Assembly (NCBI GenBank): GCA_905479165.1
Contig: CAJQLK010000042.1
Span: 246-64,245, forward strand
Length of the DNA: 64,000 nt
Direction of reading: 5' to 3'
Origin: an uncultured Flavobacteriales bacterium
GTDB lineage: Bacteria; Bacteroidota; Bacteroidia; Flavobacteriales; BACL11
The notes below the pieces were generated by a model. That model had not been told where the DNA came from. It ran no database searches and worked only from the letters and a program-made list of their open reading frames with translations. Shown here piece after piece: positions 3,005-7,827 of this stretch (position 1 is its first letter; every line of letters begins with the position of its first letter). A program made the position numbers and the translations under genes.

Positions 3005-4396
3005 ATGTCGAACAATATAAAAGAGGATTTAAAAGTTTTTAATGATTTAATTGATGTGTTTTTAGAAGACGAGAAACTCAATCCTATTTCAGAAAATATA
3101 GAATCATCTGACATAAAAGAAGTGTTAAATATTTCATTGCAAAATGAAGCATCAATTGGTATTGAATTTACATCTGCATTAAGTGACTTGATGTTAAAAA
3201 GCCCTAAATCCTCATCAAAACTATTTTTTAATCAGCTTTTTGGAGGTAGACATAGTAAGGCTGTATTAGGAGATTTATTGGCTGTTTTCTTAAATAACTC
3301 AATGGCAACATATAAGATTGCAGGACCGCAAGTTGCAGTAGAAAAAGAAATCCTTTCTCAGGTTTATAAACTGGTTGGGTATGATAAAAATGCAGGAGGA
3401 ACTTTTCCAACAGGAGGAAGTATGAGCAACTTCATGTCCTTAGTAATGGCTAGAGATAAAGTAAATATAGAGATAAAGTATAGAGGTATTAATGAAAAAT
3501 TGATTGCTTATACATCAGAAAACTCTCATTACTCAATTGCAAAAAATGCATCCTTTACAGGCTTAGGTAAAGATAATGTTCGTTATATAAAATCGGATGA
3601 ACAGGGAAAGATAAATATTGATGCCTTTAAAAATCAAGTTGAAGATGACATTGCAAATGGCTTGGTTCCTTTTTATATAAATGCCACTGCAGGCACAACT
3701 GTTTTATGCGCGTTCGACAATGTTGAGGGGTTGGCGCCAATTTGTAAGAAAAATAATATTTGGCTGCATTTAGATGGGGCATTTGGCGGATCAGTTATTT
3801 TTAGTAAAAAGTACAATCACTTGGTAAAGGGAATTGCGCAAACAGATTCGTTTTGTTTTAATGCTCATAAAACTTTAGGAGCCCCATTAAGTACTTCAAT
3901 TTTAGTAGTAAAAGATAAGCATGACCTATATAATTCATTTAATAATGATGCTGCTTATTTGTACCAAACACATGATGAAGATTTTAATTTGGGACAAACT
4001 TCTTTTGAGTGTGGAAGAAGAAATAATGCACTTAAGTTTTGGACTATGTGGAAAGCAATTGGCACAAATGGAATTGCTAAAATAGTTGAGCATGAATTCT
4101 CACTTGCTGATACAGCAAGAAAATATGTAAATTCTAATTTCGATTATACATTGTATAGTTTTAAAGACTCGTTATCAGTGTGTTTTAATTATAAAGATTT
4201 TGACCCAGAAGATTTGTGCACGAAACTTTATGAAAGCAATACTTTAATGGTAGGTTTTGGTCATTTTCATGATAATGTATTTGTAAGGTTGGTAACGATA
4301 AATGGAGAAAATACTGATGAAGATTTAAAACACTTTTTTAATGTTTTAGAAAACTTTGCTAATGAAAATTCAGACTCTATAAAAAGAATATCATAA
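3005..4396 (+). CDS. Group II PLP-dependent amino-acid decarboxylase (GAD/CSAD/acidic-amino-acid decarboxylase-like)
   Basis: 463 aa. The PLP-lysine region SFCFNAHKTLGAPLSTSILVV resembles the NPHK..G.PLQCS..L.V motif of GAD65/CSAD-type enzymes. The length is typical for the family. Confidence 0.8.
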   Translation: MSNNIKEDLKVFNDLIDVFLEDEKLNPISENIESSDIKEVLNISLQNEASIGIEFTSALSDLMLKSPKSSSKLFFNQLFGGRHSKAVLGDLLAVFLNNSMATYKIAGPQVAVEKEILSQVYKLVGYDKNAGGTFPTGGSMSNFMSLVMARDKVNIEIKYRGINEKLIAYTSENSHYSIAKNASFTGLGKDNVRYIKSDEQGKINIDAFKNQVEDDIANGLVPFYINATAGTTVLCAFDNVEGLAPICKKNNIWLHLDGAFGGSVIFSKKYNHLVKGIAQTDSFCFNAHKTLGAPLSTSILVVKDKHDLYNSFNNDAAYLYQTHDEDFNLGQTSFECGRRNNALKFWTMWKAIGTNGIAKIVEHEFSLADTARKYVNSNFDYTLYSFKDSLSVCFNYKDFDPEDLCTKLYESNTLMVGFGHFHDNVFVRLVTINGENTDEDLKHFFNVLENFANENSDSIKRIS

Positions 4397-4399
4397 TAA

Positions 4400-5053
4400 A
4401 TGCAAAACGAGTTTATAGTTACCCTAGCGTGGCCAGAAGGAATGGTAAAAGCCGCTGGAGCTTGGTATGACAATATCTTAACGCAAGATGGAGAGTACAG
4501 AGTTGGTCATTCAGCAATAGCACTTATTACTTCAACTACAAAGAAAGTGCATTATTTTGATTTTGGGAGGTATCATACTGCTAAAGGATATGGTAGGGTT
4601 AGAGATATAGAAACTGACCCAGATGTAGTAGTAATTGATGCTGAAATTTCTGAGAATAAGATTACAAATATTGATGAGATTCTTTTATATCTATCGCAAA
4701 TGAAGGCTACACATAGTGATGGAAAAATGTATGCTTCAGTTCTAAGTAATGTAGATTTTAAATCAGCTTTTAATAAAGCAAAAGGAATGCAAAAAAAAGG
4801 CATGTTACCATATGGACCTCTTGTTAGGCCAGGCACAAATTGTTCCCGTTTTGTTGCAAAAGTAATTATTGCGTCAGAACCCTCTTTTATTAAAAAGTTA
4901 AGACTTAAATATCCTTTTTGTATTTCTCCATCTCCCAAAAGAAATGTAAGTATTTCAAACAATCACTATTATGTAGTAGAAAATGGAGTGATCATTGAAG
5001 TTAAAAAGAGTAAATTAGAGTCTTACTTTACATCTATAGAAAGATATGAATAG
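4400..5053 (+). CDS. Hypothetical protein; candidate circularly permuted NlpC/P60 (LRAT/YaeF-like) His-His-Cys enzyme
   Basis: 217 aa, starting 3 nt after the decarboxylase stop. Motifs are VGH37SAIALI, KVH51YFDFG and GTNC148SRFV. Their order and spacing resemble the HWAIYVG / VVHL / NCEHFV arrangement of LRAT-like proteins. This is a motif-level inference only. Confidence 0.45.
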   Translation: MQNEFIVTLAWPEGMVKAAGAWYDNILTQDGEYRVGHSAIALITSTTKKVHYFDFGRYHTAKGYGRVRDIETDPDVVVIDAEISENKITNIDEILLYLSQMKATHSDGKMYASVLSNVDFKSAFNKAKGMQKKGMLPYGPLVRPGTNCSRFVAKVIIASEPSFIKKLRLKYPFCISPSPKRNVSISNNHYYVVENGVIIEVKKSKLESYFTSIERYE

Positions 5054-5315
5054 ACCACAAAAAATTTCAGGCAAAGCTCAACTCATAAAAGGAATTGGAG
5101 CAAGCTCTTGGTTTACAATTGTAGAAGAAAATGAACTTTTTAGAATAGAAAGATTTTCTACTGATGGAGAATTAGAATGTTCCAGATTATTTGCTGTAAC
5201 ACCAAGTAGCTTTGATGTAAAACAACCATTTGAATTCACTTATCTTTCCCACTGCAAGCAATGTACAATCATACAAAATGAAATAACATATAAATTTTAT
5301 ACTAATGAATATTAA
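5046..5315 (+). CDS. Small hypothetical protein (89 aa) with a C-terminal CxxC (SHCKQCT)
   Basis: The start overlaps the upstream stop by 8 nt (ATGAATAG), and the end overlaps the next start by 11 nt. I do not recognise a family. Confidence 0.55.
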   Translation: MNRPQKISGKAQLIKGIGASSWFTIVEENELFRIERFSTDGELECSRLFAVTPSSFDVKQPFEFTYLSHCKQCTIIQNEITYKFYTNEY

Positions 5316-5535
5316 AGTATATGGTGCCGACTGGTGCCCAGATTGCGTAAACACAAAGAATTTCTTAAACTCAAAAGGAGTTGAATTTGAATACATTGAC
5401 ATTACTGACAATGAACAGGCAATAGCGCTTGTTGAGCAAATAAATAATGGGAGAAGAGTCATCCCTACTTTGGTAGTAGATGGTAAAACTTATACGAATC
5501 CAGGTATTGCTGGATTAATGAAAATTATCGCATAA
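5305..5535 (+). CDS. Glutaredoxin-like / NrdH-like small thioredoxin-fold protein (WCPDC active site)
   Basis: 76 aa: IKVYGADWCPDCVNTKNFLNSKGVEFEYIDI...GRRVIPTLVVDG. This is the classic Grx-like layout, with CxxC after beta1 and a cis-Pro region (VIPT). Confidence 0.75.
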   Translation: MNIKVYGADWCPDCVNTKNFLNSKGVEFEYIDITDNEQAIALVEQINNGRRVIPTLVVDGKTYTNPGIAGLMKIIA

Positions 5536-5569: not shown

Positions 5570-7465
5570 ATGAGCGACTCAATAAAGCACGAATGTGGTG
5601 TAGCAATGTTAAGATTGTTAAAACCATTAGATTTTTACCAAAAGAAATATGGAACATCACTTTACGGATTAAACAAGATGTATTTGTTGATGGAAAAGCA
5701 ACACAACAGAGGGCAAGATGGGGTAGGATTGGCTAATGTAAAGCTAGATGTAGAAGCAGGAAAAAGATACATTAGCAGGAAAAGATCGGTAGCAACTAAC
5801 CCAATACAAGATGTGTTTAAGCAAGTAAACAGAAGGTTTGTTGAACTTGAAGAAAACGACCCTGAAAAATTAAAAGATCCAAACTGGATGAAAGATAATC
5901 TGCCATTTACAGGTGAGTTATTTTTAGGACACTTAAGATACGGTACTTTTGGAGAAAATACCATTGAACAATGTCATCCTTTTTTAAGACAAAATAATTG
6001 GAAAACACGGAATGTTGTTTTAGCAGGCAACTTTAACATGACAAATGTTGATGAGCTGTTTAATCAATTAGTTGACTTAGGGCAGCACCCAAAACAAAAA
6101 GCGGATACCGTTACAATATTGGAAAAAATTGGTCATTTCTTAGATGAGGCAAATGATGAGATTTACTATCAACATAAAGATAAATTCTCTAAAAAAGAGA
6201 TTACTAAAGTAATTGAAGAGGAGTTGGATTTACAAGATATCTTAACACAATCCGCAAAGTATTGGGATGGAGGTTATGTAATGTGTGGCTTGATGGGACA
6301 TGGAGATGCTTTTGCATTGAGAGACCCAAATGCTATTCGCCCAGCATATTATTATAAAGATGATGAGATTGTTGTAGTTGCATCAGAAAGACCAGTTATA
6401 CAAACTTCATTTAATGTAAATATTGAAGATGTTAAGGAAATTAAAAGAGGGCATGCACTTATCATTAAAAAGGATGGTACAGTTGAAGAAAAACAAGTTC
6501 GTGAGCCATTAGAAAGAAAAGCTTGTTCTTTTGAGCGTATTTATTTTTCAAGAGGAAATGATGTCGGAATTTATAATGAAAGACTAGAATTAGGTAAGCG
6601 TATCTTCCCAAAGGTATTAAAGTCAATAAGTAATGATGTAAAGAATACTGTTTTTTCTTATATCCCAAATACTGCTGAGGTATCTTATTTTGGTTTATTA
6701 AAAGGATGTCATGCTTACTTAAATGAAGTAAAAACAAAGAAGATTCAGGAGCTAGGTAATAATCCTTGTCATGACGAAATTGCTAAAATTATGGAAATTT
6801 CTCCAAGAGCTGAAAAGATAGCAATTAAGGATGCAAAATTGAGAACCTTCATTACTTCTGATGATAGTAGAAATGATTTGGTTGCTCATGTTTATGATGT
6901 TACTTATGGTACCGTAAAGCCTACTGACAATCTGGTTATGATTGATGATAGTATTGTAAGAGGAACTACCTTAAAGCAATCAATTATTAGAATATTGGAC
7001 CGTTTAAATCCTAAGAAAATTGTAGTTGTTTCTTCCGCTCCACAGATTAGATATCCTGATTGTTATGGAATTGATATGGCAAAAATGGGTGATTTTATTG
7101 CTTTTAATGCAGCTGTTGAATTATTGAAAGATACTAAACAAGAACAGATACTTACGGAGGCATACGAAAAGTGTAAAGCACAAGCTCATATACCAAAAGA
7201 GGAGATGGTCAATCATGTACAGGCGATATACAAGCCTTTTACTGCTGAAGAAATTTCGTCTAAGATAAGTGAGCTATTGACTCCTACAGGAACGAATGCT
7301 GAGGTGGAAATTATCTACCAATCTATTTCGGATTTACATGCTTCTTGCCCTGATCACCAAGGGGACTGGTACTTTACAGGAAACTACCCAACACCAGGAG
7401 GAGTGAAAGTGGTGAACAAAGCCTTCATGAATTACATGGAAGGAAATAACGCTAGAGCTTATTAA
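5570..7465 (+). CDS. purF: Amidophosphoribosyltransferase (class II glutamine amidotransferase + PRTase), long Bacteroidetes type
   Basis: 631 aa. It has an N-terminal nucleophile Cys (KHECGVAM) and the PRPP-binding motif VMIDDSIVRGTT. Confidence 0.9.
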   Translation: MSDSIKHECGVAMLRLLKPLDFYQKKYGTSLYGLNKMYLLMEKQHNRGQDGVGLANVKLDVEAGKRYISRKRSVATNPIQDVFKQVNRRFVELEENDPEKLKDPNWMKDNLPFTGELFLGHLRYGTFGENTIEQCHPFLRQNNWKTRNVVLAGNFNMTNVDELFNQLVDLGQHPKQKADTVTILEKIGHFLDEANDEIYYQHKDKFSKKEITKVIEEELDLQDILTQSAKYWDGGYVMCGLMGHGDAFALRDPNAIRPAYYYKDDEIVVVASERPVIQTSFNVNIEDVKEIKRGHALIIKKDGTVEEKQVREPLERKACSFERIYFSRGNDVGIYNERLELGKRIFPKVLKSISNDVKNTVFSYIPNTAEVSYFGLLKGCHAYLNEVKTKKIQELGNNPCHDEIAKIMEISPRAEKIAIKDAKLRTFITSDDSRNDLVAHVYDVTYGTVKPTDNLVMIDDSIVRGTTLKQSIIRILDRLNPKKIVVVSSAPQIRYPDCYGIDMAKMGDFIAFNAAVELLKDTKQEQILTEAYEKCKAQAHIPKEEMVNHVQAIYKPFTAEEISSKISELLTPTGTNAEVEIIYQSISDLHASCPDHQGDWYFTGNYPTPGGVKVVNKAFMNYMEGNNARAY

Positions 7466-7827
7466 GCTCTTTTGGCAACTAAACTATACCCAAGATATGC
7501 TGCTGGAAGGTAGAATATCAAATCTATTTTGAACCAGCCAGGGTGTATTAGGTTTTCTAAATTATACCAACCAGCAAAAGTGAACAATAAACCGATAAAC
7601 AAGAATTGATACTTAATGGCAGTTGAGTTTTTCCATTTTGAAACTTGAGAAAGTAAAGTAGCGACTAATGCTCCAATAAATGACCTTATAGCATGAGAAA
7701 AAATTACTAATAGAATAGCGCCTAAAGGTGCAACTGCCATGTATTTGTTAAGTGCTTCAGCATCTTCCATTGTCACCCCCTCATGTAAGGGATAGAACAC
7801 CATACTTAGATAATGCATACCCATCAT
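7462..7827 (-). CDS. Hypothetical multi-pass membrane protein; the true start may lie upstream at a non-canonical codon
   Basis: 121 aa and hydrophobic. The first ATG sits in the middle of a hydrophobic segment, and the frame stays open upstream to 7911. Confidence 0.5.
   Translation of the reverse strand: MMGMHYLSMVFYPLHEGVTMEDAEALNKYMAVAPLGAILLVIFSHAIRSFIGALVATLLSQVSKWKNSTAIKYQFLFIGLLFTFAGWYNLENLIHPGWFKIDLIFYLPAAYLGYSLVAKRA

Follow-up and report, generated by a model that had tools for sequence, protein, structure and literature searches.

Described systems related to the operon

The nearest described counterparts of the operon considered here, a run of four genes at positions 3005-5535 (+) of a 64,000-nucleotide stretch of DNA from an uncultured Flavobacteriales bacterium of the BACL11 lineage (GenBank assembly GCA_905479165.1, contig CAJQLK010000042.1, positions 246 to 64,245 of the forward strand; the whole stretch is called the window), are the taurine pathway of animals and cyanobacteria and the TseH toxin of Vibrio cholerae. 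The operon probably represents a real, uncharacterised sulfur and redox pathway, and is best read as a trimmed, lineage-specific version of a cytoplasmic pathway of Bacteroidota-wide occurrence. Cysteine dioxygenase (CDO), together with cysteine sulfinate decarboxylase (CSAD), makes up the classical route by which cysteine is converted, via cysteine sulfinate, to hypotaurine; mammals possess both this route and another that leads from pantetheine through cysteamine to hypotaurine. The operon resembles the taurine pathway in its CSAD/GAD/GADL1-like decarboxylase, and relatives of the operon combine an upstream CDO gene with the substrate signature F/Y-x19-S-x-Y. The window differs in having no CDO gene within its 64 kb and an Ala in place of the motif Tyr, and the coupled TseH-like enzyme of the module has no counterpart in the taurine pathway.

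V. cholerae TseH (crystal structure 6V98, Pfam family PF25218) has its Pfam family, its permuted NlpC/P60 fold and the order of His before Cys in common with the second protein of the operon, but the two are only ~20% identical, and the module differs further in that a DUF6695 C-terminal domain is obligatory and often fused, and in that its setting is one of metabolic and redox operons, with no type VI secretion system (T6SS) or immunity context among the neighbour clusters scanned. TseH has a phospholipase activity that is lost in a catalytic point mutant, and the TseH clade (Pfam DUF6695) has so far been described as one of T6SS-type, interbacterial toxins (PMC12994826). Other permuted NlpC/P60 relatives, such as LRAT, Tox-Act1 and the lipoprotein N-acyltransferase of Bacteroides, perform acyl transfer or hydrolysis through a Cys thioester (PMC12994826). 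The LRAT/PLAAT N-acyltransferases and the Bacteroides enzyme (DUF4105 clade), which share a superfamily with the 217-amino-acid (aa) protein of the operon, acylate amines in this way (PMC12994826), whereas the 217-aa protein is soluble, without a membrane anchor, and its acceptor would be a small amine instead of a lipid or a protein. Searches of the Protein Data Bank (PDB) gave no direct sequence or structure match between the LRAT family and the 217-aa protein. The NCSRF motif of the latter is presumably akin to NCEHF, the motif around the Cys in LRAT-like enzymes, a likeness that serves as a lead only.

Glutathionylspermidine synthetase/amidase contains a CHAP-domain amidase that acts on a thiol-amine conjugate and is redox-regulated at its catalytic Cys. 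Its likeness to the operon is conceptual (a papain-like Cys amidase, an amide that joins an acid to an amine derived by decarboxylation, a link to oxidative stress): no homology was detected, the module has no ATP-grasp synthetase, and the NlpC/P60 topology is permuted here. Finally, the TANGO2/NRDE family of Cys-Ntn hydrolases, missing from the window, supplies a partner of the DUF6695 enzyme elsewhere in the Bacteroidota. For TANGO2, the functions proposed are the trafficking of heme (PMC10470608; PMC12782551 challenges this), the binding of acyl-CoA (PMC11867700) and Cys-Ntn hydrolysis of fatty-acyl derivatives (PMC13044924).

Organization of the operon

The four genes, all on the same strand, encode a decarboxylase of 463 aa (3005-4396), the TseH-like protein of 217 aa (4400-5053), a DUF6695 C-terminal domain protein of 89 aa (5046-5315) and a small glutaredoxin-fold protein of 76 aa (5305-5535). 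The decarboxylase and 217-aa genes are separated by a 3-nt gap (TAA TAA ATG at 4394-4402), the 217-aa and 89-aa genes overlap by 8 nt (ATGAATAG at 5046-5053), and the 89-aa and glutaredoxin genes by 11 nt (ATGAATATTAA at 5305-5315). This arrangement of open reading frames (ORFs) and junctions had been set out in a preliminary description of the DNA, and was confirmed in full by the ORF list and by reading of the sequence. Tight spacing of the genes is retained in orthologues down to ~55% identity, and a terminator scan found no terminator-like site on the + strand between 3005 and 7300.

A Bacteroidota-type -7 promoter box (TACTTTTG at 2974-2981, +), which fits the consensus TAnnTTTG, is located 24 nt upstream of the decarboxylase ATG. 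Among 26 orthologous loci of related marine Flavobacteriales, 24 have a TAnnTTTG box 10-37 nt upstream of the decarboxylase start, and the intergenic DNA around it is otherwise diverged; because the box is kept amid such divergence, the element at 2974-2981 is likely to be a real promoter. The box of the preliminary description is present and conserved, but the motif is no commoner in the window than chance allows (116 matches versus 110 +/- 10 expected), a box by itself being weak evidence. A sigma-70 promoter scan is uninformative for Bacteroidota. A second match to TAnnTTTG, TAGCTTTG at 5207-5214 (+), within the 89-aa ORF and ~90 nt before the glutaredoxin start, may serve as an internal promoter or may have arisen by chance.

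Genomic contexts were taken from a scan of species-representative genomes, of which the best 80 of ~590 matching stretches, almost all from Bacteroidota, were used. The marine Flavobacteriales loci L001-L030 are called the marine clade; 27 of the scan loci (L004-L030) belong to it and the other 53 are termed distant. Ten further contexts were seeded from the decarboxylase family.

A probable two-subunit TseH-like/DUF6695 enzyme

Pfam (PF25218, 148.6 bits versus a cut-off of 27, E = 2e-43) places the 217-aa protein among TseH-like domain proteins, permuted NlpC/P60 cysteine hydrolases or acyltransferases, as does a profile built from its homologues, which matches the TseH crystal structure; 6V98 was also the sole match in the PDB (Foldseek, E = 1.7e-7, TM 0.62/0.72) to an AlphaFold model of the protein (pLDDT 76). 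His37, His105 and Cys148 (in the motif NCSRF) are invariant in 34 diverse homologues, with His before Cys as in the permuted order. His59, considered as a third catalytic residue, was rejected, as it is Ile in many homologues. The 217-aa protein has no signal peptide.

The 89-aa protein matches the DUF6695 C-terminal domain (Pfam PF20405, 85.5 bits versus a cut-off of 25, E = 3e-24) and is modelled as an all-beta fold of seven strands (pLDDT 86); weak fold matches to FABP, lipocalin and PH-like beta meanders were not used as evidence. Its conserved features are a WF pair, Cys45 and Ser-His-Cys70. Cys45 and Ser-His-Cys70 are widely kept in the family, and Cys73, which completes the CKQC motif of the 89-aa protein, is found beyond the marine clade in only a minority of lineages. 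The possibility that this protein is a C-terminal sorting domain of the type IX secretion system was rejected: only PF20405 was matched, with no Por_Secre_tail, there is no signal peptide, and the ORF is a separate one.

In the preliminary description the 217-aa protein was called permuted-papain-like, which its NlpC/P60 profile and fold matches bear out, and both middle proteins were left outside named families, which no longer holds now that Pfam has named the families of both. Structural comparison, proposed there for the two proteins together, yielded the TseH fold for the first and no significant fold match for the second.

When 1.8 billion representative proteins were searched exhaustively, 321 relatives of the 217-aa protein were recovered, many of them 300-370 aa in length with the TseH-like domain and the DUF6695 C-terminal domain in a single chain. 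Within the 80 scan loci the two parts are fused in 7 and otherwise encoded by adjacent, usually overlapping ORFs, L039 being the sole evaluable locus without the C-terminal domain; the fission point falls in a variable linker. Because the parts are fused or adjacent in evaluable loci, the 217-aa and 89-aa proteins are treated here as a two-subunit enzyme: judged by sequence, they are the halves of one protein, and the module would comprise three functional units, not four.

The decarboxylase and its linkage to the enzyme

The first gene (3005-4396) encodes a group II decarboxylase of the CSAD/GAD/GADL1 type, dependent on pyridoxal 5'-phosphate (PLP) (Pfam PF00282, Pyridoxal_deC, 260.8 bits versus a cut-off of 27, E = 2e-77). 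Its closest solved structures are CSAD (2jis, E = 4e-71; human and mouse CSAD, E about 1e-71), GAD67/65 and GADL1, in agreement with its earlier assignment to the GAD/CSAD type, and its PLP-lysine motif NAHK, kept in all decarboxylase orthologues aligned, aligns with NPHK of CSAD (2jis and 6zek). A stand-alone aspartate 1-decarboxylase of the PanP type, which the preliminary description had named as the identity that would speak against a linked pathway, was rejected on a score far under the NCBIfam cut-off (TIGR03799, 124 bits versus 606), as was L-2,4-diaminobutyrate (DABA) decarboxylase (NF052646, 170 bits versus 900).

The substrate signature of CSAD is F/W-x19-S-x-Y as described in bioRxiv 10.64898/2026.08.27.747329, which cites Agnello 2013 as its origin. 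The decarboxylase of the window reads F-x19-S-M-A, with two of the three signature positions kept and Tyr replaced by Ala, and so departs from the CSAD signature. By motif alignment, nearly all marine-clade decarboxylases (L028 excepted) read F/Y-x19-S-M-A, and the distant decarboxylases linked to TseH-like/DUF6695 genes have the canonical signature F/Y-x19-S-x-Y (S-M-Y). Because of the motif Ala and because the 64-kb window contains no CDO gene, the substrate of the window decarboxylase is probably a related small acidic amino acid.

The complete set of decarboxylase, two enzyme halves, glutaredoxin and a PurF-like protein is found only in the marine clade (L001-L030), within which identity of the 217-aa protein goes down to ~48-55%. 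The decarboxylase gene is immediately upstream of the enzyme in 20 of the 27 marine-clade scan loci, and a diverged decarboxylase is directly upstream in 7 of the 53 distant loci (Vicingaceae, Bacteroidales and other Flavobacteriales), with enzymes 40-48% identical. Half of the ten decarboxylase-seeded contexts (L086, L087, L088, L093 and L095) have a fused DUF6695 gene whose start overlaps the decarboxylase stop. The linkage of decarboxylase and enzyme is much older than the marine clade; of the synteny expected in the preliminary description, what persists in distant Bacteroidota is the association of the decarboxylase with the 217-aa/89-aa pair, the four-gene set as such not being syntenic beyond the marine clade.

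A CDO gene (PF05995) is immediately upstream of the decarboxylase-DUF6695 pair in four of the ten seeded contexts (L086, L087, L088 and L093) and in L044. The run of CDO, decarboxylase and fused DUF6695 genes in the cultured Labilibaculum antarcticum (L086; AP018042.1, around 4.458-4.461 Mb) occupies L086:5283-8371. Searches of the literature found no published description of a CDO-decarboxylase-DUF6695 operon.

Some of these contexts have features of their own. The CDO gene of the Tara contig L088 (L088:4692-5248) seems to lie in two overlapping ORFs, indicating a frameshift, and may be a pseudogene or the product of a sequencing error. A protein of ~510 aa (Glu_synthase, PF01645, FMN-type) is encoded next to the decarboxylase in three loci (L088:7791-9320, L089:4438-5979 and L094:5413-6963), both with and without DUF6695, and may be a further member of the pathway. 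The sole match labelled as other than Bacteroidota (L065, an uncultured Rhizobium sp. metagenome-assembled genome) has the same DUF6695 N-terminus as the metagenome-assembled genome of Chitinophaga pinensis (L061), and probably reflects contamination in binning, not a genuine occurrence in Alphaproteobacteria.

An alternative upstream module and stress-related neighbours

Where the decarboxylase is missing, another module often takes its place. A TANGO2/NRDE-family gene is directly upstream of the enzyme in 22 of the 53 distant loci; the encoded proteins all begin MCT... and retain both Cys2 and an (N/S)RDE motif, features that active Cys-Ntn hydrolases should have. The TANGO2-like gene is preceded by one for a ~168-aa protein of the DinB superfamily with an invariant set of three His residues, and of the 28 loci with a DinB-like gene, 23 also have the TANGO2-like gene. 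The order DinB-TANGO2-DUF6695, with N-terminal and C-terminal parts of the enzyme, is conserved in many Bacteroidota, with L032, L037, L041-L043, L047, L050 (6794-8938) and L052 as examples, and often follows two genes, one for an extracytoplasmic function (ECF) sigma factor and one for an anti-sigma factor bearing an Hx3Cx2C motif. In the upstream slot of 89 loci, the decarboxylase with or without CDO is present in 42, DinB with or without TANGO2 in 28, and both in none. Because 42 loci and 28 loci do not overlap, the two appear to be alternative feeder modules for one downstream enzyme. The DinB-TANGO2-DUF6695 operon may also provide a genomic hint at what the TANGO2 family does, a matter in dispute.

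The recurrent neighbours of the family as a whole point in the direction of stress. Besides the ECF sigma factor and the ~90-aa anti-sigma factor with its Hx3Cx2C zinc-finger motif, they include YceI, a membrane OB-fold protein, DUF4833, an MMPL-type transporter, DUF3179 and MerT-HMA, and, as redox proteins, AhpC/TSA peroxiredoxins, thioredoxins, CMD/AhpD and a class I disulfide reductase. Beside the CDO loci are rhodanese-thioredoxin fusions, rhodanese, DsrE, peroxiredoxins, YceI and DUF4833. Control by the EcfO-Reo regulon of Bacteroides was considered and rejected, since the anti-sigma factor Reo is large and traverses both membranes, and its regulon is made up of NigD lipoproteins, whereas the anti-sigma factor here has ~90 aa and an Hx3Cx2C motif. 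No secretion-system or polymorphic-toxin family was present among the scanned neighbour clusters that recur in at least 4 loci (90 loci), and two of the recurrent clusters are without any Pfam match.

The glutaredoxin and PurF-like genes

The last gene of the four (5305-5535, +) encodes the glutaredoxin-fold protein with a CPDC motif that had been anticipated (Pfam PF00462, 55.2 bits versus a cut-off of 22.9, E = 8e-15; WCPDC at residues 10-14). The nearest NCBIfam models, mycoredoxin and YruB-type, both scored under their cut-offs (mycoredoxin, TIGR02200, 71 versus 89.5), and NrdH (TIGR02194) was likewise rejected at 34 versus 85.75. The glutaredoxin gene is found in the marine clade only, in 20 of its 27 scan loci, and is missing from L021, L026, L027, L029 and L030. 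The 89-aa-type domain has a CxxC in all 28 glutaredoxin-linked loci and also in 16 loci without glutaredoxin; the glutaredoxin set being a single clade, this correlation is not independent evidence. The dedicated dithiol relay of the preliminary description is weak on two counts, since the second Cys of CKQC is missing in most of the family and the glutaredoxin is limited to the marine clade.

Starting 34 nt past the glutaredoxin stop is a gene (5570-7465, +) for a PurF-like class II glutamine amidotransferase/phosphoribosyltransferase of 631 aa. Because of the 34-nt gap and because no terminator-like site precedes it, this gene may be co-transcribed with the module, which it adjoins in 26 of the 27 marine-clade loci and in no distant locus. 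It is probably a housekeeping gene rather than a member of the pathway. Its product scores 122 bits with the NCBIfam purF model, for which the equivalog cut-off is 350. Despite this low score, its conservation and synteny within the clade are extreme, and it probably represents the long, divergent form of PurF that occurs in Bacteroidota.

The proposed pathway and its alternatives

From the computed gene order and coupling, the families, the conserved catalytic residues, the split-versus-fused relation and the recurrent neighbours, we infer substrates, a direction of reaction and a role for the glutaredoxin as follows. The CSAD-type decarboxylase would strip CO2 from a small acidic amino acid derived from cysteine, for which cysteine sulfinate is the default candidate, to form a primary amine of the hypotaurine type. 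The 217-aa and 89-aa proteins, made by coupled translation, would act as a single two-subunit enzyme in which the His37/Cys148 pair forms a thioester acyl-enzyme, so that an amide on the amine is made or broken, in the simplest form by N-acylation or deacylation of the decarboxylase product. The glutaredoxin, a lineage-specific addition, would keep the catalytic Cys, the Cys45/Cys70/Cys73 cluster, or both, in the reduced state.

This sequence of hypotaurine-type amine formation, TseH-like amide chemistry and glutaredoxin upkeep, as a cytoplasmic sulfur and redox pathway, is a tentative proposal to which we give somewhat less than an even chance. In its general form, a combination of amine-forming decarboxylation with Cys-dependent acyl or amide chemistry had been suggested in the preliminary description; it is still the best reading, though unproven, and is supported because CDO is upstream in relatives and because the enzyme recurs in clusters of oxidative and thiol stress. 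Likewise, the enzyme is best read as a cytoplasmic partner of an amine pathway of the hypotaurine type under thiol or oxidative stress, and not as a T6SS toxin.

Several observations weigh against the proposed pathway. The acyl donor and acceptor are pointed to by no evidence, and the model of the 89-aa protein matches nothing significant among PDB folds (best E 0.24, TM at most 0.48). CDO homologues are missing from the marine-clade loci as well as from the window, and the Ala in place of the motif Tyr suggests that the window decarboxylase may have a substrate different from that of CSAD. The decarboxylase family is found without DUF6695 in five of the ten seeded contexts, and ~6 kb separate decarboxylase and TseH-like enzyme in L008, L009 and L012. 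Conversely, DUF6695 stands without any informative partner in 19 of 89 loci, some of them being instances of housekeeping synteny between RNase E/G and an MnmE-like gene (labelled by eye from its N-terminal sequence). All the locus counts are to be read as phylogenetically non-independent.

The occurrences of the decarboxylase family alone and its displacement by ~6 kb are also what would be expected if the genes had separate roles: a stand-alone decarboxylase would supply CoA synthesis or osmoprotection with beta-alanine, hypotaurine or taurine, an unrelated redox-linked role would fall to the TseH-like pair and glutaredoxin, and the tight spacing would reflect streamlining of a small marine genome. 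This explanation, unlikely but the strongest of the rivals, accords with the IMG annotation of the decarboxylase as sulfinoalanine/aspartate 1-decarboxylase, with the presence of other partners of DUF6695, or none, in 47 of 89 loci, and with the housekeeping PurF-like gene, which is equally syntenic in the clade. It does not sit easily with the overlap of decarboxylase stop and DUF6695 start in Bacteroidales, Marinilabiliales-type, Vicingaceae and Flavobacteriales genomes at enzyme identities of 40-48%, with the CDO-decarboxylase-DUF6695 run in five loci, or with the mutual exclusion of decarboxylase and DinB/TANGO2 upstream.

Gene order does not fix the order of reactions, and the TseH-like enzyme might instead act upstream, as an amidase or peptidase on a low-molecular-weight thiol or peptide that is over-oxidised or conjugated, from which cysteine or cysteine sulfinate would be freed; the freed compound would then be oxidised by CDO and decarboxylated, so that damaged thiols would be salvaged or detoxified much as in the mercapturate pathway. 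Thiol S-transferases are known among DinB-fold proteins. The placement of the enzyme after a DinB-like protein with an invariant His triad in 28 loci, 23 of them with a TANGO2/NRDE-type Cys-Ntn amidohydrolase, and the thiol and redox genes among its neighbours fit this idea. We nevertheless consider it improbable, and a little more so than separate roles: low-molecular-weight-thiol biosynthesis genes were seen in no locus, DinB, TANGO2 and CDO are all missing from the window, and the characterised permuted NlpC/P60 relatives use acyl or lipid esters, not peptides (PMC12994826).

Two more specific schemes are both very doubtful, to about the same degree. The first concerns the handling of sulfane sulfur. 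Hypotaurine is an acceptor of sulfane sulfur, and might combine with persulfide sulfur to form thiotaurine, with Cys148 as a persulfide carrier or transferase; the rhodanese-thioredoxin fusions, rhodanese and DsrE beside CDO-decarboxylase-DUF6695 loci would suit such a scheme, but the window has no rhodanese or DsrE gene close to the module, a papain-like architecture with His and Cys typically goes with acyl chemistry and not with sulfur transfer, and rhodanese alone would be enough for the chemistry in question. The second scheme starts from two non-homologous modules that share a slot and never co-occur: CDO with CSAD and TANGO2-like with DinB-like proteins would each lead to the same amine derived from cysteine, for example hypotaurine, in parallel with the two mammalian routes. 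Bacterial TANGO2 homologues would then be cysteamine-releasing, pantetheinase-like amidases, the DinB-like protein with its three-His metal site a thiol dioxygenase, and the DUF6695 enzyme would turn the amine into an N-acyl sulfur compound for defence against oxidative stress, all of which is speculation from gene position alone.

That the 217-aa protein is an antibacterial toxin like V. cholerae TseH and the 89-aa protein its immunity factor is extremely improbable, for although the Pfam family is named for TseH, the fold match is to 6V98, conflict-type contexts are stated for the TseH clade (Pfam DUF6695) (PMC12994826) and a small gene directly downstream is a toxin-immunity-like layout, a role for the 89-aa protein as immunity factor is ruled out because it is best treated as a subunit of one enzyme with the 217-aa protein, to which its counterparts are covalently fused in many species, and the low identity to TseH, the metabolic and redox neighbours, the housekeeping synteny conserved in streamlined marine genomes and the lack of secretion-system or polymorphic-toxin matches among the scanned recurrent clusters are all contrary to it.

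Other features of the window

On the opposite strand upstream of the operon (1499-2881, -), an ORF for a surface protein with LTD, CotH, PKD and CHU_C domains ends after 460 aa; its relatives in L001 and L085 have 1176-1182 aa, and the corresponding gene of L084 is split into 841 + 353 aa. The shortening points to a frameshift, to a pseudogene or to an error of assembly. Downstream, an ORF of 118-121 aa (~7462-7827, -), hydrophobic-looking and without a Pfam match, converges on the stop of the PurF-like gene with an overlap of a few bases, and is kept in L084 and L085. From synteny with L084:16160-20270, the window is predicted to contain at ~11-16 kb a suf cluster for Fe-S assembly (SufB/D, SufS, SufE and FeS_assembly_P) that is accompanied by DUF2480 and a HamA_HO-like, haem-oxygenase-like protein; this sulfur and iron theme downstream may be a coincidence.

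Implications for sulfur metabolism in Bacteroidota

The contexts of the family point to a cytoplasmic version of DUF6695 that is tied to cysteine-sulfinate or hypotaurine metabolism and to an oxidative-stress cluster under the control of an ECF sigma factor and an anti-sigma factor of the zinc-finger type. What would be new is a CDO/CSAD-type sulfur-amine pathway that is extended by an uncharacterised TseH-like enzyme and lies within a stress regulon. Human TANGO2 deficiency is reported to be responsive to vitamin B5. The DinB/TANGO2 partner module, if the proposed pathway is correct, would be a genomic handle on the disputed biochemistry of TANGO2, and the speculative scheme of two routes to one amine, if true, would give TANGO2 homologues an amidase function and provide a biochemical lead for the human deficiency. 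For the organisms themselves, the pathway, if true, would be a new bacterial route to a sulfur or antioxidant metabolite in abundant marine Flavobacteriales, and would constitute the first physiological role for a widespread domain of unknown function.

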